Origin: Myxococcota bacterium
Lineage (GTDB): Bacteria > Myxococcota_A > UBA796 > UBA2385
NCBI GenBank assembly: GCA_044344255.1
Contig: JBIJDH010000004.1
Location: forward strand, 224,001 to 288,000
Length of the DNA stretch: 64,000 nt
Direction: 5' to 3'
A program made the position numbers and the translations under genes. This document shows positions 17,409-34,824 of the stretch, one piece after another. The notes under the pieces were generated by a model. The model searched no databases, was not told where the DNA came from, and was given only the letters and a program-made list of their open reading frames with translations. How positions within the stretch are numbered: position 1 is the stretch's first letter; each line of letters opens with the position of its first letter.

Positions 17409-18002
17409 TCAGCCCCGCTCGTCGGTGGATTGTATGATCCAGTCCATGGCCATGTTGTCGAGCAGGGCGGCGCCAGCGTCGTCCTCTGGGGAGAGCGCGG
17501 CCCGGGCCTCGGCGAGGCGGCCGAGCAGCGGAGGGTCGGCCAGCTCGCCGAGGGGGGGGCTGGTGAGCGCGCCCTGCCAGCGCCCCTCGACGAAGGTGTC
17601 CTGGATGGGCAGGCCTCCGCCGCGCTTGAGCGCGAAACAAGGGGTGCCGAAGCAGCGCAGCAGGCGGCCGAGGGCGTCGTCCCGCGCCGCCGCTCCGGCG
17701 AGCACCGCGACCACGGCCGCCTCGGGGTCGTCCTCCTCGGCGGGCTGGCTGAGGGCCCAGAGGCCGTAGAGCCCCGACCAGGCGAGGGCGGGGTCTGCGG
17801 CCCAGCGTGCGGCGCCGTCGCCGAGCACCCAGGCCCGGAGCTGACGCACGGGGCCGAAGGTGGCGAGCGCCTCGCTGACCTGCTCGATCACCTCGAGGTC
17901 GTCGAAGGCCTGGGCGGGCAGGACGCGGGTGTCGATGACCACGCCGCCGGAGCGCAGCCGGGTGAGGAGGGCGGCCGAAGGGCGAAGGGTGGGGGATGCC
18001 AT
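17409..18002 (-). CDS. Hypothetical protein
   Basis: Plausible globular protein co-oriented with pntA; GGAG upstream of ATG 18002; no motif recognised. Confidence 0.55.
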   Translation of the reverse strand: MASPTLRPSAALLTRLRSGGVVIDTRVLPAQAFDDLEVIEQVSEALATFGPVRQLRAWVLGDGAARWAADPALAWSGLYGLWALSQPAEEDDPEAAVVAVLAGAAARDDALGRLLRCFGTPCFALKRGGGLPIQDTFVEGRWQGALTSPPLGELADPPLLGRLAEARAALSPEDDAGAALLDNMAMDWIIQSTDERG

Positions 18003-18057
18003 CGGGGGCTCCAGGGCGGGTGCCTCTGTTATGCTGGCGGAGCGAGGAGCACCCGCC

Positions 18058-20190
18058 ATGACCCTGGACCCCCGATTCTTCCCCGTTCATCGACGGCTCG
18101 CCCTCGGGGCGCTGCTCGGGTTGGCCGCCTGCGCGGGCGGCGAGGCCGGGAAGGGTGGCGCGGCCGGTGAAGGGGGCGTCACCGGCCAGGACCGTGACCT
18201 CGACGGCTACTCGGGGCTGGACGACTGCAACGACGAGGACCCCGCCGTTCACGTGGACGCCGCCGAGATCTGCGACGGCGTCGACAACAACTGCGACGGG
18301 GAGGTGGACGAGGGTGTGCTCACCACCTGGTACAGCGACCTCGACGACGACGGCTTCGGCGACGCCGCGAGCCCCATCGAGGCCTGCTCTCCGGATGAGG
18401 GCATGGTGACGAACGACACGGACTGCGATGACGACGAGGAGCGGGTCTACCCCGGTGCTTATGACGCCTGCGACGGCCTCGACAACGACTGCGACGGCGA
18501 GATCGACGAGGCGGAGAGCGTCACCTGGTACGCCGACGAAGACGGGGACGGCTACGGTGACCCCGCCGCCTGGGTCGAGGCTTGCGCCGCCCCCGACGGC
18601 TACACGCGCGACGATCAGGACTGCGACGACACCACCGCGGCGGCCGCCCCGGCGGCCGCGGAGGTCTGTGATGAGATCGACAATGACTGCGACGGTGACA
18701 TCGACGAGGCCGTGACCTCCACCTACTACGAGGACCGCGACGGAGACGGCTGGGGCCTCCTCGCCGAGACCACCGAGGCCTGCACCCGCCCCACCGGCTA
18801 CTCGGTCGACGCCGGGGACTGTGACGACACCGACGTCGCCTACAACCCCGACGCGCTCGAGCTCGACTGCACCGATCCCCACGACTACAACTGCGACGGC
18901 AGCGTGGGCTACGCCGACGCCGACGGGGACGGCTGGGCCGCCTGCGAGGACTGCGACGACAGCGACGCCCTCGTCCGCCCCGACGGCCTCGAGGTCTGTA
19001 ACGGCGTCGATGACGACTGCGACACCCTCATCGATGACGCGGACCCCTCCGCTGACCTCAGCACCGGCTCCACTTGGTACGCCGACGCCGACGGGGACGG
19101 CTTCGGGGACGCCGGCGTCGCCGTCTCGGCCTGCGGGGCGCCGTTCGGCTACGTCTCGAACACGCTCGACTGTGATGACCACGACAGCCTCGTGAGCCCC
19201 AGCGCCACGGAGATCTGCAACGAGATCGACGATGACTGCGACGGGGACATCGACGGGGACGACAGCTCCGTCGATCTGTCCACGGGTGTGGTGTCCTACG
19301 CCGACGTGGATGGAGATGGGTACGGCGACGCCGCCGCCCCCGCCGAGGGCTGCGTGATCGAGGCCGGCTACGTCGACAACGACTCCGACTGTGACGACGC
19401 GGCGGTGGCGGTCAACCCGGCGGCGATCGAGGTCTGTAATGGTTACGACGACGACTGCGACCTGGCGATCGATGACGCGGACGGCAGCCTCAGCCTCGGC
19501 TCGGCCGGCACCTGGTATCAGGACAGCGACGGCGACGGCTACGGGCTCAGCAGCTCCACCACCCGCGCCTGCCTCGAGCCCGCCGGCTACGCCGCTTCGA
19601 GCGCGGACTGCGACGACGGGGCCGGGGCGGTCCACCCGGGGGCCACCGAGGTCTGTGACGCCGTAGACAATGACTGCGACACGAGCGTCGACGAGGGCTG
19701 GGACGCGGACGGAGACTCGATCACCGACTGCAAGGAGATCTCCCACACGGTGACGCTCTACCTCTCCGTCGATGACGCCTGGAGCGGCTACATCGACGGG
19801 ACCTCCATCGGCTCGGGGGGCGGCTGGTCCACCGTCCACACCATCACGAGCACCCTCGACTCCGGTGACCACGTGCTCGCCATCTACGGTGTCGACACGG
19901 GAGCGGCCATCGCGGGCTTCCTGGCCGCCGTCTACATCGATGGGAGCCTGTACTCGGTCTCGGGAGACGGGAAGTGGAAGGTCGGCGCCTCTGGCCCCAG
20001 CGGCTGGACCACGGCCGCGTACAACGACGCCGCCTGGGGCACCGGCACGGCCTGCACCGCCTCCCAGATGTCGACCTACTGGGGAGGGGCGCCGGCCAGC
20101 CTGCGGGCCACCGGCGCCTCCTGGATCTGGTCGCAGAGCTGCACCAGCCTTGGGGCGGGCTACTTCCGCTTGAACCTGACCTTGCCCTGA
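18058..20190 (+). CDS. Lipoprotein with about 10 putative metal-binding-motif repeats (DCDD...E.CDG.DNDCDG.IDE) and a C-terminal lectin-like beta-sandwich
   Basis: Lipobox LAAC; repeated WYxDxDGDGYG / DCxD / ExCxxxDxDCDG units; C-terminal VDDAWSGYIDG...GDHVLAI...WIW domain. Confidence 0.85.
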   Translation: MTLDPRFFPVHRRLALGALLGLAACAGGEAGKGGAAGEGGVTGQDRDLDGYSGLDDCNDEDPAVHVDAAEICDGVDNNCDGEVDEGVLTTWYSDLDDDGFGDAASPIEACSPDEGMVTNDTDCDDDEERVYPGAYDACDGLDNDCDGEIDEAESVTWYADEDGDGYGDPAAWVEACAAPDGYTRDDQDCDDTTAAAAPAAAEVCDEIDNDCDGDIDEAVTSTYYEDRDGDGWGLLAETTEACTRPTGYSVDAGDCDDTDVAYNPDALELDCTDPHDYNCDGSVGYADADGDGWAACEDCDDSDALVRPDGLEVCNGVDDDCDTLIDDADPSADLSTGSTWYADADGDGFGDAGVAVSACGAPFGYVSNTLDCDDHDSLVSPSATEICNEIDDDCDGDIDGDDSSVDLSTGVVSYADVDGDGYGDAAAPAEGCVIEAGYVDNDSDCDDAAVAVNPAAIEVCNGYDDDCDLAIDDADGSLSLGSAGTWYQDSDGDGYGLSSSTTRACLEPAGYAASSADCDDGAGAVHPGATEVCDAVDNDCDTSVDEGWDADGDSITDCKEISHTVTLYLSVDDAWSGYIDGTSIGSGGGWSTVHTITSTLDSGDHVLAIYGVDTGAAIAGFLAAVYIDGSLYSVSGDGKWKVGASGPSGWTTAAYNDAAWGTGTACTASQMSTYWGGAPASLRATGASWIWSQSCTSLGAGYFRLNLTLP

Positions 20191-27270: not shown

Positions 27271-28752
27271 GTGAACAGCACCCAGGACGCCGCTCCGCTC
27301 TTTGCTTCACGCCGCAGCGAGGCTGGGGGCGATCGGCTCGCGTTGTCCCTGGTCTGGTCGCGGGAAGAGCCCCACCGTGTCGGAGAGATCGTGCTCCCCG
27401 GCCCCACGCCAGCGGTCCTCGGTCGCGGGCCGGCGCTCGGCGCGGGTCGCCTGGGCCTCGGGCGCGCCCGCCCGGGCTCGACGTGGGACCCCTCCCAGCT
27501 CGGCTCACCGCGCATCTCTCGAGACCAGCTTCGACTGTGGACCGAGGGCGGGAGCCTCCGCGTCGAGAACGTGGGGCGCTGCCGGCTGCTCGTTGATGGC
27601 GCGGCGGTGACCGAGGTCACCGTCGACCCGCACGACCAGGTCTTGCTCGAAGACGAGGCCCTCTTCATCGTCGTCCGGCGTCCCTGGCCGGTCACCGCCT
27701 GGAGCGCCACGCCGCGCCCGCCGCGCTTCCCCTTCGGAGAGGCGGATGAGGACGGGCTCGTCGGCGAGAGCCCGGCGATGTGGGCCTTACGCAGCCAGCT
27801 CGCCCTGCTCGGGCCGCGGGCCGCCCACGTCTTGGTGCGGGGCGAGAGCGGCACGGGCAAGGAGCTCGTGGCGCGGGGTCTCCACCGCCGGTCGACGCGC
27901 GCCTCCCGAGCGCTGGTCGCGCGAAACGCCGCCACCCTCCCCGCCACCCTGGTCGACGCCGAGCTCTTCGGAAACGCGCGGAACTACCCGAACCCGGGCA
28001 TGGCCGAGCGCCCGGGGCTCGTGGGTGAGGCCGATGGCGGCAGCCTCTTCCTCGATGAGTTCGCCGAGCTGCCGGTCGAGGCCCAGGCCCACCTCCTCCG
28101 CGTGCTCGACCAGGGGGAGTACCACCGCCTCGGGGAGGCCAAGGCCCGCGTGGCCGACCTCCGCCTGATCGCGGCCACCAACCGGCCAGAGACCGCGATC
28201 AAGCACGACGTGCTGGCGCGGATGCCGCTGCGGGTGGAGCTCCCCCCGCTCACCGCGCGCCCCGAAGACGTGCCCCTGCTGCTTCGGCACCTCCTCTTGG
28301 GCATCACCCGCCGCGATCCTGCGCTGATGGCCCAGCTCATCGGCCCCACCGGGCTCCCTCGCACCACGCCGGGCCTCATCGCGGGGCTCTGTCGGTGGCG
28401 GTGGACCACCCACGTGCGGGAGCTCGAGCAGCTCCTCTGGAGGGCGATCGGCGAGGCCACGGACGGCCTGCTCGACTGGCCCCGGGGCCTCGACGCCCGG
28501 CCCGCCGCCGCGCGGCCCGTCACGCCCCTGGGGCCGCTCGTCGATCCCGAAGAGGCGGAGCGGGGTGACGGAGACAGCGGTGGGGTCGATCCCGAGACCC
28601 TCGATCCCGCTCATGTGCAGGATGTCCTCGACGAACATGGGGGCCAACAGGAGCCCGCCTGGCGCGCCCTCGGGCTCGCGAGCCGGCATGTGCTCACCCG
28701 GCTCGTCAAGAAGCACGGGCTCCGGGTGCGGGGCCGCAGGGGCCCCGCTTGA
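27271..28752 (+). CDS. FHA-like + AAA+ + HTH enhancer-binding-protein-type regulator with a non-canonical L1 loop
   Basis: FHA-like LGR...ISRDQ...EN; Walker A GESGTGKE; ELFGNARNYPNPG in place of ELFGHxxGAFTGA; FLDE; IAATNR; C-terminal Fis-type HTH. Confidence 0.88.
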   Translation: MNSTQDAAPLFASRRSEAGGDRLALSLVWSREEPHRVGEIVLPGPTPAVLGRGPALGAGRLGLGRARPGSTWDPSQLGSPRISRDQLRLWTEGGSLRVENVGRCRLLVDGAAVTEVTVDPHDQVLLEDEALFIVVRRPWPVTAWSATPRPPRFPFGEADEDGLVGESPAMWALRSQLALLGPRAAHVLVRGESGTGKELVARGLHRRSTRASRALVARNAATLPATLVDAELFGNARNYPNPGMAERPGLVGEADGGSLFLDEFAELPVEAQAHLLRVLDQGEYHRLGEAKARVADLRLIAATNRPETAIKHDVLARMPLRVELPPLTARPEDVPLLLRHLLLGITRRDPALMAQLIGPTGLPRTTPGLIAGLCRWRWTTHVRELEQLLWRAIGEATDGLLDWPRGLDARPAAARPVTPLGPLVDPEEAERGDGDSGGVDPETLDPAHVQDVLDEHGGQQEPAWRALGLASRHVLTRLVKKHGLRVRGRRGPA

Positions 28753-31700
28753 CGAGCTGGGTACTCCCCGATCAGTTCGATGGGCTGCGGGTCGTGAGGG
28801 CGCTCGGCCGCGGGGGGATGGGCGCGGTTTACCTCGCGCACGACGTCGCCCTGGATCGCCCGACCGCCCTCAAGCTGATCAGCGCCGAGGAGCCCACGAG
28901 CGCGCTGCGTTCGCGCTTCCTCGTCGAGGCCCGCGCCCTGGCCCGGCTCCAGCACCCCAACGTGGTCGGGGTGTATCGGTTCGGTGAGGTCGATGGCCGG
29001 CCCTACCTCGCCTACGAGTTCGTCGAGGGGGGCTCCCTCGCCGGTGTGGGCCAGATGCCGTGGGTGCGGGCGCTGAGCATCTGCGCGCAGGTGGCCCGCG
29101 GTATGGCCGCCTCCCATGAGCGGGGGGTGGTGCACCGGGACATCAAGCCGGCCAACATCATGGTCGGCGTCGACGGGTCGGTGAAGCTGCTCGACTTCGG
29201 CCTCGCCGTCCTCGGCGCCACCGGAGATCGACCCGCCCAGGCCCTCACCCTCGACGGCCGCGTCGTGGGCACCCCCGCCTACATGGCCCCCGAACGCTGG
29301 CTCGGCGAGGCCCCCTCTCCGGCCGCCGACGTCTGGGCTTGGGCGATGGTCTTCCGCCTCCTGCTCACAGGCTCCCACCCCTTGGAGGGGGTGCCGGTCT
29401 CCGAGCTGCCGCGGGAGCTCACCCTCCGGGACCTCCCGCCCTGCAGCAGCGTCCTCCCCGACCTCCCGCCCGTGCTCTCCTCGCTGATCGATCGCTGCCT
29501 CTCCCGCTCGCCGGAGCGCCGGCCCCCCTCCGGCGTCGAGGTGCGGGACGCCCTGGAGGCGGTCACGGCGCTCCTGCTCCCCGCGGGCGGCGGCTCCCCC
29601 ACTGAGGGGCGCATCGGCCTCGTGGGGGCCTCCTTCTCGCGGGTGGCGCAGTCCGTCGAGCTCTTCTCCCGGCGCTTCTATGAGCGCCTCTTCGCCCTCT
29701 CCCCCGGCCTGCGCCCGCTCTTCCCGCTCGACATGTCGAGCCAACGCGACAAGCTGGTCGGCGCCTTGCAGCTCAGCGTACAGTCGCTGCGGGTGCCCGA
29801 GGTGCTGGTCCCCTTGCTTCGGGACCTTGGGCGGCGCCACGCGGCCTACGGGGTCGAGGCGCGGCACTTCGAGCCGGTGGGGGCGGCGCTGCTCGGCGCG
29901 CTGCAAGAGATCGAGGGCAGCGCCTGGACGCCGGCCCTCGCCCAGGCCTGGCAGGCCACCTGGGCCGATCTGGCGCGGCCCGTGCTCGCCGGCCTCGCCG
30001 AGGCGCGGGGAGGGGACACCCTGGGGATGCTCACCGAGGGCGGCGGCGCCATCGCCCGGGTCGCCCTGCCCACCCACCTGCCCCTCTCCGGGCCCTCGGC
30101 GATGGCGACCCCCGCCAGCGACGCCCGCGCCCCCTCGCTCCCGCCGCGGGGCGCAACGCCCTCCAACGGCCCCGGGGCCTCCCGGCCGCCGCTCTCCGCG
30201 CCGCCCCGCGCCTCCGGCTCGTCCCCGCCCCCCTCGCTGCCGTCGCCCTTGACCCGCTTCTTCGGCCGCACGCGGGAGCTCGAGGAGCTCGTCGCCCAGG
30301 TGGCCGAGGGAGTGCGGCTGCTCACGATCCTCGGCATGGGCGGCTCGGGCAAGACCCGCCTCGCCCTCGAGCTCGCCCGGCGCCTGCACGCGGCCAGCCT
30401 CGGACGGCCGGTCGTCTGGGTGGCCCTCGCCGACGCTCGCGACCACGAGGGGGCCCTCTCCCTGATGTTGCGGGCGCTCGGGGTCAAGGACGCCCAAGGC
30501 GAGCCCCTCGATCTCCTCATCGAGACGCTCCACACCCGCCCAGCGCTGATCTTCCTCGACAACGTCGAGGACATCGCCGATGAGCTCGGCGACAGCCTCA
30601 GCGGCGTGCTCGAGCAGTGTCCGGACGCCACCTGCATCATCACCTCCCAGCGCCCGCTCCACATCATGGGGGAGCTGCTCTACCGCCTCGAGCCGCTGCC
30701 GCTGCCCTCCGCCGACGCCGCGACCCTGGAGATCGAGGCCAGCGACGCCGTCGCGCTGCTGATCGACCGCATCCGCCTGCAGCGCCCCACCTTCCGGCCC
30801 GATCCCACCTCGCTCCCGCAGCTCCTGGCGTTGGCCCGCCGCCTCGACGGCATCCCGCTGGCCCTCGAGCTCGTGGCGGTGCGGGTGGGCAAGATGCAGC
30901 TCTCGTCGCTCATCGAGCGGCTGGAGCGTGATCTCGGGCTGATCGAGGACGGCGCCCGAAACCGCCCCGGCCGACAGCGCTCGCTCACCGCCGCGCTCCG
31001 GTGGACGGCCGAGCGCCTCGACCCCGAGCTCCGTGCGCTCTTCTCCGATCTGGCGGTCTTCCCCGGAGAGTTCGGCCTCGAAGACCTGCGCGAAGTGCTC
31101 GGCGTCCCGGTCACCCACGAGGAGCTGGAGTCGCTGATCGAGCACTCCCTCGTGGTGCCCGTCGGCGGCTCCGAGGGGCGCTATCGGATGCTGAGCACCG
31201 TGCGGGCCTACGCCGCCGGCCTGAGCTCTCCCGAGCGCAGCGCGGCCCTCCAGCTCGCCCTGGTCGAGATGATCACCTCGATGGCCGGGAAGTGGATCGA
31301 TCAGCTCGGCACCTCGGAGGCCCAGCGGAGCACCGCGCGCTTGGAGGCGAGCTGGTCCACCCTGCTCGCGGTGGTCGATCTGGCCACCCCCGAGCGGGCC
31401 GCGCACATCCTCGGCCGCGTCCCCGTCTTCGTGATGATGACGAAGCGCTTCGCCGATGTCCTACCCCGCATCGAGCGGCTCTTCGCCAGTGACATCCTGC
31501 CGAAGCTGAGCTCGGACGTGCGAGTGCGCCTCTGCCGGGCCGGCCACCGCCTCAACCTCGTCACCGGCCACGCCGATCGCACCGAGGCCTGGCGGCTCCA
31601 GCTCCTGCACTGCGCGGCCCTGCCGCTCTCGGAAGTCATTCGAGACGGCCTCGACGCCGAGCTCGGTCTCTCGGCCATGGAGCGGGGCAGCTATCGGGAG

Positions 31701-32480
31701 GCGCGCGAGATCTACCAGCGCCTGCGCGAGGGGGAGCAGCGCCGCGGGAACACGCGCCAGGAGGCCGTTCACGTGGACTCCCTGTCCCGTGTCGCCTTCT
31801 ACGCGGGTGATCTCCGGCTCGCGAATTCGCTGGCGGTCGAGTGCGCTGCGCTCGTGCACCAAGTGGCTGATCCGCAGCTCGCCGAGGCGAACCTCCGCAT
31901 GCGCATCGGCCTCCAGGCCGACCTCGAGGACGCCGAGGAGGTCGAGTCGCTCTACGACGCCCTCGTCGAGCTCCGGCGGGCCTCCGGACAGCCAGAGCGC
32001 GATGGCTCGATGATCCTGCTGGAGTCGATGATCGCGCGGGCGAAGGGGGAGTACGAGCGGAGCTTCAACCTGCTGCTGGAGTCGGGCGGCGAAGAGAGCG
32101 ACAACCGTCGTCAGCGCATCATCTTCCTCGGCTTCCTGGCCAAGGCGGCCCTCCTCCGGGGCGACCTGGAGCGCGCCTTGGTGGAGGCCGAGCGCTCGTC
32201 GGCGGGGCATCGCGCCCTCCTCCGCCCTTGTGAGCTGCCGCGGGTGCTGTGGATCCGCGTCCGCTGCCTCCACCTCCTCGGGCGAGCCGGGCAGGAGGAG
32301 GCCCTGTGGGAGGCCGCCGAGGCCACGCTGGCCGTGGAGGGCTACCTCGCCGCCCGAGACCTCCTCGAGGTCTGGTCCCTCGTCCGCCCCGGCGATGGGG
32401 TCACGATGGAGATGTACCCGGAGGGCTGGCGTGGCCGGGTCCGAGAGCTGCTCGAGCAGCGGAGGGCGCCGGGCTCATGA
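28749..32480 (+). CDS. Ser/Thr kinase - globin - STAND (NB-ARC/AfsR-like) NTPase - TPR-like fusion protein
   Basis: Kinase: GRGGMG, ALK, HRDIKPAN, DFG, GTPAYMAPE. Globin (~29610-30000): FYERLF, RPLF, SQRDKL, LGRRH, YGV..HF..VG.ALL, AW. NTPase: FFGRTREL, GMGGSGKT, LIFLDNVE, LDGIPLALEL. Helical repeats follow. The TTG start overlaps the upstream TGA. Confidence 0.9.
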   Translation: MTSWVLPDQFDGLRVVRALGRGGMGAVYLAHDVALDRPTALKLISAEEPTSALRSRFLVEARALARLQHPNVVGVYRFGEVDGRPYLAYEFVEGGSLAGVGQMPWVRALSICAQVARGMAASHERGVVHRDIKPANIMVGVDGSVKLLDFGLAVLGATGDRPAQALTLDGRVVGTPAYMAPERWLGEAPSPAADVWAWAMVFRLLLTGSHPLEGVPVSELPRELTLRDLPPCSSVLPDLPPVLSSLIDRCLSRSPERRPPSGVEVRDALEAVTALLLPAGGGSPTEGRIGLVGASFSRVAQSVELFSRRFYERLFALSPGLRPLFPLDMSSQRDKLVGALQLSVQSLRVPEVLVPLLRDLGRRHAAYGVEARHFEPVGAALLGALQEIEGSAWTPALAQAWQATWADLARPVLAGLAEARGGDTLGMLTEGGGAIARVALPTHLPLSGPSAMATPASDARAPSLPPRGATPSNGPGASRPPLSAPPRASGSSPPPSLPSPLTRFFGRTRELEELVAQVAEGVRLLTILGMGGSGKTRLALELARRLHAASLGRPVVWVALADARDHEGALSLMLRALGVKDAQGEPLDLLIETLHTRPALIFLDNVEDIADELGDSLSGVLEQCPDATCIITSQRPLHIMGELLYRLEPLPLPSADAATLEIEASDAVALLIDRIRLQRPTFRPDPTSLPQLLALARRLDGIPLALELVAVRVGKMQLSSLIERLERDLGLIEDGARNRPGRQRSLTAALRWTAERLDPELRALFSDLAVFPGEFGLEDLREVLGVPVTHEELESLIEHSLVVPVGGSEGRYRMLSTVRAYAAGLSSPERSAALQLALVEMITSMAGKWIDQLGTSEAQRSTARLEASWSTLLAVVDLATPERAAHILGRVPVFVMMTKRFADVLPRIERLFASDILPKLSSDVRVRLCRAGHRLNLVTGHADRTEAWRLQLLHCAALPLSEVIRDGLDAELGLSAMERGSYREAREIYQRLREGEQRRGNTRQEAVHVDSLSRVAFYAGDLRLANSLAVECAALVHQVADPQLAEANLRMRIGLQADLEDAEEVESLYDALVELRRASGQPERDGSMILLESMIARAKGEYERSFNLLLESGGEESDNRRQRIIFLGFLAKAALLRGDLERALVEAERSSAGHRALLRPCELPRVLWIRVRCLHLLGRAGQEEALWEAAEATLAVEGYLAARDLLEVWSLVRPGDGVTMEMYPEGWRGRVRELLEQRRAPGS

Positions 32481-32487
32481 GGCCGTC

Positions 32488-33663
32488 TCAAGCCGAGACG
32501 AGGCGGAGGAGCGTGATCTCTGCGGGTTCGCCCATCCGGTTCGGGGGCCCCCAGTAGCCCGTGCCGCGGTTCGTATAGATCCACATCTCCCCGAGCTTGT
32601 TCAGACCCGCCGCGAAGGGCTGGACGAGGCCGATGAGGAGGGTCCAGGGGAAGTATTGGCCCGCGTGGGTGTGGCCGGAGAGCTGGAGGTGAAAGCCCCC
32701 CTCCACGGTGACGGCTGCCAGCGCGCTCCGCGGCTGGTGGGCCAGCAAGAGCCGCAGCGCGGCCGGCGGCGCTCCGCGGATGGCGGCGGCGGGGTCCGAG
32801 CGGTGCGTGGGCATCATCCGCTCGGCGGAGAGGTCGGTGACCCCGGCGACGACCACGGTCTCGCCGTCGTGCTCGAGCACCACATGCTCGTTGACCAGGG
32901 TGCGCAGCCCGTAGCCGCGGAGGGCCTCGAGCCAGGCCTCGGCGCCCGAGTAGTACTCGTGGTTGCCGGTCACGAAGAAGGTGCCGTGGCGCGAGCGAAG
33001 GTCGCCAATGATCGAGACCTCGGCGCCGAGGGCCTCTACGGTGCCGTCCATGAGATCGCCGGTCACGGCGACGAGATCGACCCCGAGCGCGTTGACCCGC
33101 TCGACGACGGCGCGGAGGTACTCACCGGTGATGGTGGGCCCGATGTGGACGTCGCTGAGCTGGGCGACGCGGAGCCCCACGAGGGATCGGGGGAGGCCGA
33201 CGATCGGCACCTCGATCTCGACGACGGCTGCGAGTCGCCGAGCCTCCCGGTATCCGAGGACGGTGGCCCCCGCGCCGAGGGCGAGGGTGGCGCCGTAGCC
33301 CACCCCGGCGAAGAGCCGCCGACGGGCAGGGTCGAAGCGGTCCGCACCAGCCCCACCCCGGGCCCGCCGCACGACGTCGGGCAGGCGGGCGAGGAGGATC
33401 AGCAGATCGGTGGACGCGACCCCGGCGAAGAGGAGGGTCGAGCAGCCGAAGAGCAGGTAGGCCGGCCAGCTCACGAAGGGCTGCCAGGGCGCGCGGCTCG
33501 CGGCGCGCATCAGCGTGAAGGAGAGGGGCAGGAGCAGGGCCTGAGCGGCGAGGAGGCCCCAGATGAGCGCCTTGAAACGGGGGAAGGCTCCGCCGATCCG
33601 GCGACCGAGGTAGGCGCTGAAGCCGGTGAGGAGGCCGAGGGCGAGGAGGCCGAAGAGGGTCAT
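32488..33663 (-). CDS. Membrane-anchored calcineurin-like metallophosphoesterase (YkuE/YaeI-like)
   Basis: SDVH, TGDLMDG, GNHEYY, LAHQP, SGHTHAGQ, GYWGPPNR; N-terminal TM helices. Start at ATG 33663. Confidence 0.92.
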   Translation of the reverse strand: MTLFGLLALGLLTGFSAYLGRRIGGAFPRFKALIWGLLAAQALLLPLSFTLMRAASRAPWQPFVSWPAYLLFGCSTLLFAGVASTDLLILLARLPDVVRRARGGAGADRFDPARRRLFAGVGYGATLALGAGATVLGYREARRLAAVVEIEVPIVGLPRSLVGLRVAQLSDVHIGPTITGEYLRAVVERVNALGVDLVAVTGDLMDGTVEALGAEVSIIGDLRSRHGTFFVTGNHEYYSGAEAWLEALRGYGLRTLVNEHVVLEHDGETVVVAGVTDLSAERMMPTHRSDPAAAIRGAPPAALRLLLAHQPRSALAAVTVEGGFHLQLSGHTHAGQYFPWTLLIGLVQPFAAGLNKLGEMWIYTNRGTGYWGPPNRMGEPAEITLLRLVSA

Positions 33664-33789
33664 GGGCAGAGCTCCTACCCCGCCTGTCCCCGGCGCCCAG
33701 TCGCCGGCGGCCTCGGCGCCCCGCGGCCCGGGTTCGCGGCGCTCCGCCTCGGCCCCGCGATAGGCGGTCGGGTCCGTGAGGCCCTCGCG

Positions 33790-34824
33790 ATGCTGATCCC
33801 GCTCTCGTTCCTCGGCGCCCTCAGCGTGCTCGGCGCGCGCTCGTTGACCCCGGAGGCGCGGGCCGAGCCGCTCACCACCGCGCTTGTCGGGCAGCACGAC
33901 CAGCCCGGGGACTGCTGGGCCCTCATCGACGGCGTCGTCTACGACCTCAGCCCCTGGGTGGGCGCTCACCCGGGGGGAGAGGCCATCACCCGGGCCTGCG
34001 GCAAGGACGCGACCTGGCTCTTCCACCATCGTGAGGCCGCCGGGGGGCCATCCGGGGGGCAATCAGGTGGCCACTCCGCCGCGGCCGCAGCCCTCCTGCC
34101 CTCCCTCGCCCTCGGCCCTCTCGGCGCAGAGGCTCCCGCGAGCGTCGCCCGCCCCGTGATCCACCCGCACGCCGCTCGGCTCGAGGGGGCGCGGGTGGGC
34201 CTCCTCCCCTCGTCGGGGGTCGGTCCAGCGAAGAGCGTGGCCCTGCGGGTGGGGCACCAGCTCTCCACCGGCGACGCCGCCTCGGGGATCGGGGTGCAGC
34301 TCGGCTACAGCACCGGCTGGATGGACGTCCTCGTCAGTGATCAACGCGCGCCCGGGCTCGGCGCCCTCGAGGTGAAGGTCCGCCCCCTCGCCCAGCACGG
34401 GGCGGTGGAGCGGCCGCTCTCGATCTCCCTCGGCGCCGGCGGGGGCTACGCCTCCGCGGCGGAGGCGCCCGCCCTCTTCGGCGCGCTGGTGCTGGAGCGG
34501 GACGCCCTCGACCGACGTCTGAGCGCCCGACTCGTCGGCGACGGGGGCCTGTCCCCGGGAGAGGCGGAGAGCGCCCAGGCCTCGGCGGGCGTCGGGCTCG
34601 AATTCCGGCCGATCCCCATCCACAGCCTCTTCGGGGAGCTGGTGGTGCCGCTCGGAGCGCCCGAGAGCTTGGCCTGGTCGGCGGGGGCCCGATTGTTCAC
34701 CCGCAGCCACAGCTTCTCGATCTATGTGGCCTCGACGCCGGCCCTGTCTCCCTGGGAGCTCGCCGGCCCCACCGCAGAGACCCTGTCGATCGGCCTCTCG
34801 ATGGAGCGAGCCTTTCGACTCTGA
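33790..34824 (+). CDS. Exported cytochrome b5-like heme domain fused to a probable outer-membrane beta-barrel
   Basis: Signal-like N-terminus; HDQPGDCWALIDGVVYDLSPWVGAHPGG...CGKDAT.LF...GHS b5 signature; beta-strand-rich C-terminus ending AFRL. Confidence 0.75.
   Translation: MLIPLSFLGALSVLGARSLTPEARAEPLTTALVGQHDQPGDCWALIDGVVYDLSPWVGAHPGGEAITRACGKDATWLFHHREAAGGPSGGQSGGHSAAAAALLPSLALGPLGAEAPASVARPVIHPHAARLEGARVGLLPSSGVGPAKSVALRVGHQLSTGDAASGIGVQLGYSTGWMDVLVSDQRAPGLGALEVKVRPLAQHGAVERPLSISLGAGGGYASAAEAPALFGALVLERDALDRRLSARLVGDGGLSPGEAESAQASAGVGLEFRPIPIHSLFGELVVPLGAPESLAWSAGARLFTRSHSFSIYVASTPALSPWELAGPTAETLSIGLSMERAFRL

Follow-up and report, generated by a model that had tools for sequence, protein, structure and literature searches.

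An uncultured freshwater myxobacterium codes for a protein in which a Hanks-type Ser/Thr kinase is followed, in a single polypeptide, by a globin of the F family, a Pro/Ala/Ser-rich linker, a STAND NTPase and about 400 residues of TPR-like helices. The gene lies at 28749..32480 on the forward strand of a 64,000-nucleotide stretch (positions 224,001 to 288,000 of contig JBIJDH010000004.1 in assembly GCA_044344255.1, a draft genome of 83 contigs), which was analyzed as a whole and is referred to below as the window. On balance, we favor the view that its product is a soluble, multi-input Ser/Thr kinase regulated by heme, and we find that the kinase-globin pair recurs in a wider and apparently unstudied family. 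The domain anatomy is read directly from the gene; whatever goes beyond it we infer.

An initial annotation made from the letters of the window had described one reading frame here, and the open-reading-frame list with its translation bears this out, giving 1243 residues from a TTG start. This start shares four nucleotides (TTGA) with the TGA stop of the gene upstream, and in alignments the N-terminus is in register with those of the homologs.

The kinase and globin domains

The kinase domain (28791..29525, + strand; residues 15-259) is matched by the Pfam model Pkinase PF00069 with an E-value of 6.6e-41 and 140.9 bits against a cut-off of 31.7. It is an intact Hanks kinase, as had been claimed, with GRGGMG at 20-25, K42, E60, H129-R130-D131, N136, D149-F150-G151, G174-T175-P176 and E182 of the APE motif all in place, and the catalytic residues are invariant in all 32 aligned kinase-globin proteins. 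The domain is of the RD type, for which regulation via phosphorylation of the activation loop is usually expected. In the AlphaFold2 (AF2) model, the predicted local distance difference test score (pLDDT) of the kinase is mostly above 90, while the activation loop (residues 152-173) is disordered. The tether that connects the kinase to the globin is modeled as a helix (262-276) and a 7-residue loop, with the first globin helix starting at residue 284.

The globin occupies 29610..30032 (+ strand; residues 288-428) and was delimited from Pfam, NCBIfam and PDB sequence matches. Pfam Globin PF00042 covers residues 309-408 with 48.3 bits against a cut-off of 22, and in NCBIfam residues 299-410 align to the globin part of the NO-inducible flavohemoprotein model. 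A sequence search of the PDB finds as the best solved relative the globin of HGbRL from Methylacidiphilum infernorum (3wfw; E 2.7e-20), followed by HGbI of Methylacidiphilum (3s1i; E 4.3e-16), with Vitreoscilla hemoglobin (1vhb), Ralstonia FHP (1cqx), the E. coli flavohemoglobin HMP and neuroglobins among the further relatives. The sensor-family model Protoglobin PF11563, for its part, has no match in the protein at E <= 1. By its sequence relatives, the globin is of the F family, that is, of the flavohemoglobin or single-domain type that the initial annotation had named.

The motifs quoted for this domain are all present (FYERLF at 310-315, RPLF at 322-325, SQRDKL at 331-336 and GRRH at 361-364), and the heme-pocket residues picked out in them, Tyr B10, Phe CD1, Gln E7 and His F8, align to HGbI and HGbRL as proposed. 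In these alignments, Tyr311 corresponds to B10, Gln332 to E7 and Lys335 to E10, and Arg363 (F7) and Tyr367 fall on two propionate-binding positions; the B10, E7, E10 and propionate-site numbering is that of PMC4476040, where the residues aligned to Tyr B10, Gln E7, Lys E10, Arg F7 and Tyr367 are described as heme or ligand contacts. The assignment of Phe325 to CD1 and of His364 to the proximal F8 position is our own reading of the same alignments. Across the 32-protein alignment Y311, F325 and H364 do not vary, and each of Q332, K335 and R363 is kept in at least 90% of the sequences. The globin would bind heme b through His364.

This conservation bears on the possibility that the globin is a mere dimerization or scaffold domain, its heme constitutive or absent, with regulation left to the STAND-TPR part only. 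Precedents exist in globin-like sensors that have no heme, RsbR and a sporulation kinase of Bacillus among them (PMC7475203), and in the HGbRL globin, an obligate swapped dimer with a fused E-F helix in the crystal (PMC4476040); likewise, thousands of kinase-STAND-TPR proteins do without a globin altogether. However, a heme-free scaffold would have no need of the pocket residues, and yet all of the 32 proteins have His F8, Phe CD1 and Tyr B10, and nearly all of them Gln E7 and Lys E10. Moreover, since kinase-globin proteins without a STAND part exist, the globin is in those the sole candidate regulatory domain. A pure scaffold is, in our judgment, quite unlikely.

A heme-sensing role for the globin has its closest precedent in HGbRL (PDB 3wfw/3wfx), a putative sensor in which an F-type globin is fused to a Roadblock/LC7 domain. 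According to PMC4476040, Lys E10 is the sixth heme ligand in the closed form; on its release the CE loop and helix E rearrange, a movement proposed there as the signal. The two globins have in common Tyr B10, Phe CD1, Gln E7, Lys E10, the F7-F8 Arg-His pair and the propionate-binding Tyr, and in both cases an F-family globin resides within a multidomain protein thought to signal. They differ in that the HGbRL globin is N-terminal and partnered with Roadblock/LC7, whereas the one described here comes after a kinase and before a STAND module, and in that the E and F helices are separate in our AF2 monomer. The function of HGbRL is likewise unproven.

Alternatively, the globin could be a heme enzyme or a gas buffer (a nitric oxide (NO) dioxygenase, a peroxidase-like or an O2-scavenging protein) that the kinase and STAND parts regulate or localize. 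Its F-family relatives do include flavohemoglobins, Vitreoscilla hemoglobin and a chain titled nitric oxide dioxygenase, which share the Tyr B10/Gln E7 pair with it, and a KatG-like peroxidase is encoded beside one kinase-globin locus (L038). Against this, the protein has no reductase domain, nor is there an adjacent reductase gene, to recycle the heme; the tether to an intact kinase is short and invariant, which points to signaling; and because the same globin clade is elsewhere fused to MCP, CheW, PAS and histidine-kinase (HisKA-REC) modules, it seems to serve there as a sensor module. The closest solved relative, HGbRL, is itself a proposed sensor (PMC4476040). An enzymatic or buffering globin is, all told, unlikely.

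The same genome also codes for a stand-alone F-type globin of this clade (L002:38-523, - strand, contig C81), which is 33% identical to the fused globin. On its short contig it adjoins an open reading frame resembling 2-oxoglutarate-dependent oxygenases.

The STAND and TPR-like region

The globin is followed by a disordered linker (30033..30248, + strand; residues 429-500) recognized by its composition, 18 Pro, 12 Ala and 12 Ser in 72 residues, and by its low model confidence, with pLDDT below 50 at residues 423-461. It differs in both length and sequence among the orthologs. Beyond it lies the core of the NTPase with its helical and winged-helix parts (30255..31223, + strand; residues 503-825), delimited by motifs, the AF2 model and Foldseek. 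The Walker A (GMGGSGKT, 529-536) and Walker B (LIFLDN, 600-605) sequences are those given in the initial annotation, and the P-loop G-x-G-G-x-G-K-T and a D-N-x-E motif are invariant in 30 aligned relatives of this part. The remainder (31230..32465, + strand; residues 828-1239) is a TPR-like helical-repeat region of about 20 helices, delimited by DSSP of the AF2 model and by Foldseek, which is presumed to be the sensor arm of the STAND module.

An AF2 model of residues 495-1243, built on the 30 relatives of the STAND part, has a pLDDT of 90.1 and a predicted template modeling score (pTM) of 0.80. In it, a P-loop domain with helical and winged-helix parts leads into a series of about 20 paired helices, in keeping with the STAND NTPase and TPR-like helices called beforehand. 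The top Foldseek match of the model is the STAND-TPR protein 6mfv_A (E 7e-15, 742 aligned columns, TMt 0.58); others are Apaf-1 (1z6t, E 1e-9), plant NLR resistosomes, Avs3 and CED-4, and along the helical-repeat arm chains of the APC/C and the TPR protein LGN. By its predicted fold and motifs, this region is a STAND NTPase. A sequence search with residues 495-1243 recovers thousands of relatives named 'predicted ATPase', in which it is combined with SARP/BTAD, LuxR, adenylate cyclase, XRE or kinase domains. Apart from the orthologs, P0277, P0009 and P0278 come closest over the full length, with 35-36% identity over 93-94% of the region. The SARP/AfsR-type domains Trans_reg_C and BTAD find no Pfam match in the protein itself.

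The initial annotation had called the protein NLR-like. This stands as a description of the fold, which Foldseek supports; a link to defense, as looked for with PADLOC, was not found. One could nevertheless picture an anti-phage sensor in which the TPR-like arm recognizes an invader, the STAND module oligomerizes, the kinase is the effector and the globin an accessory. The predicted fold does match Avs3, Apaf-1 and the plant resistosome NLRs, and the PADLOC kinase models PD-T4-6 and mad6 match the kinase domain. Yet the PADLOC matches listed (25 of 33) are confined to the kinase domain, and they recur in an unrelated kinase encoded nearby; the surrounding genes are housekeeping or metabolic; and the closest relatives of the STAND part are regulators of the SARP, LuxR, adenylate-cyclase and kinase kinds. 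We hold an immune role to be highly unlikely.

Integrity of the fusion

A four-part fusion in an 83-contig draft invites the suspicion of an assembly chimera or a frameshifted pseudogene, the more so as contigs from de Bruijn graphs break at conserved kinase and AAA+ motifs. The stretch 29400-30400, which takes in the end of the kinase, the globin, the linker and the start of the STAND part, is present nearly word for word in Logan contigs of 19 DNA runs, and in each of these runs half or more of the words sampled across the kinase, globin and linker are present. These runs are lake, river and other freshwater metagenomes, and 8 of the 19 are marked as possible sources of the assembly. For the junctions, contigs of four runs not so marked were compared with the window. 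One 14,146-nucleotide contig (X14) spans 27840-32700, and single contigs of two other runs span 27846-30320 (X9) and 29133-32685 (X10), in each case with no indels and with scattered substitutions. Where Logan contigs end, the ends coincide with conserved AAA+ and HRD motifs, at which de Bruijn graphs are expected to break.

The full architecture is also found end to end in three more protein clusters, P0003 with 66% identity and P0004 and P0005 with 45%. P0004 is an ortholog in G472, a genome of the same taxonomic order; it lies on a 289-kb contig (L034) and aligns over its full length with that 45% identity. Since each junction between domains is crossed, free of indels, by contigs from other studies, and since three further clusters share the architecture, the fusion is not an assembly artifact; the check for a chimera suggested by the initial annotation thus came out in favor of the gene, and the probability of a chimera or pseudogene is negligible.

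The kinase-globin family and its distribution

An exhaustive HMMER search with residues 285-430 returned 7050 proteins at E <= 0.001, the best 150 of which were listed. Among these, a kinase of the related Hanks type directly precedes the globin in 34 of 148 newly listed representatives, and five proteins found earlier (P0122-P0126) are likewise kinase-globins. The STAND part occurs, among the kinase-globins listed, only in the P0003-P0005 group, making four protein clusters with that of the window. All 13 of the long kinase-globin forms scanned end in an alpha/beta hydrolase, and forms of about 450-510 residues have nothing C-terminal to the globin; one of the latter is a complete two-domain open reading frame of 497 residues deep inside a 3.2-Mb contig (L017/L039). 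Because the pair occurs alone or, mostly, with a hydrolase, the STAND-TPR part looks, on these comparisons, like one of several alternative C-termini added to a conserved kinase-globin core. The initial annotation had spoken of a globin inserted between the kinase and the STAND switch; the data point the other way, as the pair is mostly found without a STAND part.

A quick and weakly supported tree of 90 single-globin domains (143 columns) places all 41 kinase-fused globins in one half of 52 rows and none among the other 38 rows. This half has a support of 93 in the Shimodaira-Hasegawa-like approximate likelihood-ratio test (SH-aLRT), below the starred support level, and the two STAND pairs branch close to the base without being joined in a single clade. 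The public names of the kinase-globin proteins are generic ('protein kinase' or 'alpha/beta fold hydrolase'), and by public record their sources are metagenome-assembled genomes of Myxococcota, Deltaproteobacteria and Polyangiaceae.

A kinase-globin query against 60 relatives found the fusion in none of them; one candidate (G016:C489, query 6-403) proved to be a kinase-ATPase without a globin and was rejected. With the globin alone as query, matches at E <= 1e-15 occur in 9 of the 154 genomes from the order, and the ortholog is present in G472 only. Across a sample of 400 genomes from the phylum, 401 with G000, the globin finds matches at E <= 1e-12 in 34; among these, G184 and G194 have kinase-globin-hydrolase genes, and G309 has the two-domain form. 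A scan of genome contigs with residues 285-1243 gave a distant Actinoplanes STAND match (L003) only, and one of metagenome contigs with P0005 gave only a short kinase fragment (L027).

The kinase-globin-hydrolase proteins (P0006, P0007, P0024; residues 766-899 in L020) carry a conserved C-terminal region of about 130-150 residues for which no Pfam family is reported.

The globin clade has a varied range of other architectures. It includes giant tandem-globin proteins (P0129-P0144 among others), such as P0129 with 14 globin stretches in 2461 residues and P0130 with 12 in 1842, and at least two globin stretches are seen in 72 of the 161 proteins tallied. Its F-type globins are further fused to MCP, PAS-HAMP-MCP (1351 residues) and CheW domains, occur in a GAF-HisKA-globin-receiver arrangement, and are joined to MHYT domains, a methane monooxygenase gamma chain, pentapeptide repeats and protoglobin. 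These fusions are found in P0201, P0223, P0254, P0235, P0264, P0260, P0270 and P0255, and in L035:2960-7012. Taken by their domain composition, these proteins suggest a broad and little-described set of F-type globin sensors. In P0128, of a class of about 1030-1060 residues, an AAA_16 domain of STAND-like type is N-terminal, the globin is at the extreme C-terminus and a kinase is lacking, an order opposite to that in the window. In L036:5560-8751 a C-terminal globin is the sole Pfam match, with a Ser/Thr kinase encoded separately some 3.5 kb upstream.

Gene neighborhood

The gene directly upstream (27271..28752, + strand), whose stop overlaps the kinase start, specifies a 493-residue sigma-54 enhancer-binding protein (Pfam Sigma54_activat, E 3.3e-39). 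Its N-terminus (the first 160 residues, 27271-27750) is FHA-like according to the ESM Atlas, with a score of 0.90 to Myxococcota clusters, and also by eye. The Pfam FHA model does not match the activator at E <= 1, nor at E <= 10 genome-wide, and a search of PDB sequences with this N-terminus yields chance-level matches only. If real, the FHA domain would place a phosphothreonine reader directly before a Ser/Thr kinase gene. For this lineage, but not beyond it, the translationally coupled activator is a candidate target of the kinase. Of the five loci compared, two (that of the window and L039) have a sigma-54 activator no more than 5 kb away; in L039 it is clearly of the FHA type and about 4 kb from the kinase-globin gene. 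This co-occurrence may be due to chance, these genomes being rich in kinases and activators.

Beyond the activator, a GNAT acetyltransferase (- strand) and another Ser/Thr kinase are encoded. On the downstream side lie genes for a metallophosphoesterase (32488-34062, - strand), a cytochrome b5-like heme-domain protein and a class III aminotransferase. The part of the metallophosphoesterase frame coding for its N-terminus is overlapped by a frame at 32230-34824, within which the cytochrome b5-like heme domain is found at about 33886-34026 (+ strand, 53 bits). The wider surroundings are of a housekeeping nature (fatty-acid oxidation, aminotransferase, acyltransferase).

Elsewhere in the window, at 17860-20190 (+ strand), a 776-residue protein has eight MopE-type putative copper-binding motifs (216 bits). 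A protein near the ortholog (L034:3696-5849, - strand) has one MopE-type motif together with FG-GAP repeats. In G184 (L037:4655-7895), three GvpL/GvpF gas-vesicle genes and a histidine kinase gene lie directly upstream of a kinase-globin-hydrolase gene; an oxygen sensor would have an obvious output in the control of gas-vesicle buoyancy.

Comparison with known systems

In the full-text literature, which leaves subscription reviews of globins and of the myxobacterial kinome outside its scope, we found no paper on a Ser/Thr kinase-globin fusion, and in agreement with the initial annotation no characterized protein with the kinase-globin-STAND-TPR architecture. The bacterial heme-based gas sensors known to us act on histidine kinases, on enzymes of cyclic-di-GMP turnover, on chemotaxis receptors or on transcription factors, and we know of none described as controlling a eukaryotic-like Ser/Thr kinase. 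Functional parallels among Ser/Thr kinases dependent on a heme or metal-redox center are animal HRI, the heme-regulated eIF2-alpha kinase, and the rubredoxin-bearing mycobacterial PknG; the sensing domains of both are unrelated to globins, and the resemblance is functional only.

The globin-coupled sensors of the S family, HemAT, EcDosC/YddV and AfGcHK of Anaeromyxobacter, offer a likeness in principle, as in each the ligand or redox state of a heme globin controls a fused signaling enzyme, AfGcHK being an oxygen-activated histidine kinase (PMC8697598 and PMC7475203). They differ in having a sensor-type globin at the N-terminus, in AfGcHK joined to a histidine kinase, whereas here an F-type globin (residues 288-428) is C-terminal to a Hanks Ser/Thr kinase output (residues 15-259), a contrast that the initial annotation had already drawn. 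Neither of the two features that define a globin-coupled sensor, a globin of the sensor type and its position N-terminal to the transmitter, is thus seen in the protein of the window. As far as the available text of PMC7475203 goes, kinase domains are among the outputs of sensor-family globins only.

The C-terminal half has affinities of its own. Kinase-STAND-TPR proteins without a globin, which number in the thousands, have the same order of Hanks kinase, STAND core and helical repeats, and their STAND parts are 26-43% identical to the one described here. Mycobacterium tuberculosis PknK is a studied example of this class. Unlike the protein of the window, they have no heme domain between kinase and NTPase, and its TPR-like arm lies beyond the Pfam TPR models. 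The STAND-TPR protein 6mfv (PMC6468293) is the best structural match of the predicted residues 495-1243, and SARP/BTAD-STAND proteins of the type of Streptomyces AfsR (PMC10936776) are among the closest relatives of the STAND part. Both have DNA-binding or other effectors and no kinase and globin, whereas the protein of the window lacks a SARP/BTAD region.

A probable heme-regulated kinase with a possible second input

From these comparisons a scheme can be put forward in which the distal pocket formed by Tyr311 and Gln332 would respond to O2, NO, CO or the redox state of the iron, with Lys335 possibly acting as a sixth heme ligand as in HGbRL. The E helix and CE loop would move in consequence, and this motion would reach the kinase over the 7-residue tether and alter autophosphorylation. 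Control of phosphorylation by O2, NO or redox state is probably what kinase-globin proteins have in common. The STAND-TPR part would then most likely add a second, oligomerizing input. It would rest as an ADP-bound closed monomer; something binding the TPR-like arm would bring about nucleotide exchange and multimerization, and the kinase domains brought together in this way could trans-phosphorylate their activation loops, so that the protein would integrate the heme signal with a second one. For STAND proteins generally, PMC6468293 describes a closed, ADP-bound monomer that opens and multimerizes on the action of an inducer. Any particular wiring of the STAND part is far less secure than heme regulation of the kinase, and the coupling of heme state to STAND oligomerization suggested by the initial annotation is putative.

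One more specific version of such wiring would make the protein a two-key hub, in which heme ligation licenses the opening of the STAND module, a cue at the TPR-like arm drives an ATP-dependent, apoptosome-like ring of kinases, and the ring phosphorylates the co-translated, possibly FHA-type sigma-54 activator, thereby passing a gas signal on to sigma-54 transcription. We consider this version doubtful.

Several observations weigh against a heme-regulated kinase or against parts of this scheme. Heme binding, the gas gating of the initial annotation, the identity of the ligand and the effect on the kinase are all deduced from sequence. F-family globins are typically enzymes or carriers and not sensors, which leaves room for a catalytic role. 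The AF2 model of kinase and globin together has a pTM of 0.64 and does not establish a fixed interface; a complex prediction of kinase residues 1-280 against globin residues 283-430 with heme, made without controls, scored 0.00 against a mark of 0.32 and is evidence neither way on an interface. In the C-terminal half, the Pfam P-loop models over residues 503-640 stay below their cut-offs (AAA_16 with 27.4 against 32.6, NB-ARC with 20.8 against 23.5), as do nSTAND1/3/5/6, and no Pfam TPR model matches the protein at E <= 1; the STAND and TPR calls therefore rest on predicted structure. The single RNA run contains a fraction of 0.05 of the words sampled and gives no evidence of a transcript. Finally, the genomic context is not conserved: the ortholog in G472 (L034) has a PepSY_TM gene upstream, a BKACE gene downstream and neither the activator nor any other of the neighbors described for the window, the neighbors of three other kinase-globin loci are all different, and no conserved gene neighbor emerges across the five loci.

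Implications

If the heme-regulated kinase proposed here is real, the kinase-globins would be the first class of bacterial Hanks kinases gated by a heme globin, corresponding on the Ser/Thr side to FixL, DosS and AfGcHK. As a family they are directly testable candidates, offering a small soluble module, of about 450-500 residues for the kinase-globin pair by itself, with obvious residues to mutate in His364, Tyr311, Gln332 and Lys335. They also indicate that F-type globins, and not only those of the sensor type, have been widely recruited as signaling modules. The form with the STAND part would be a rare case of an NLR-like switch and a cofactor sensor in one polypeptide, and could show how two signals are integrated.

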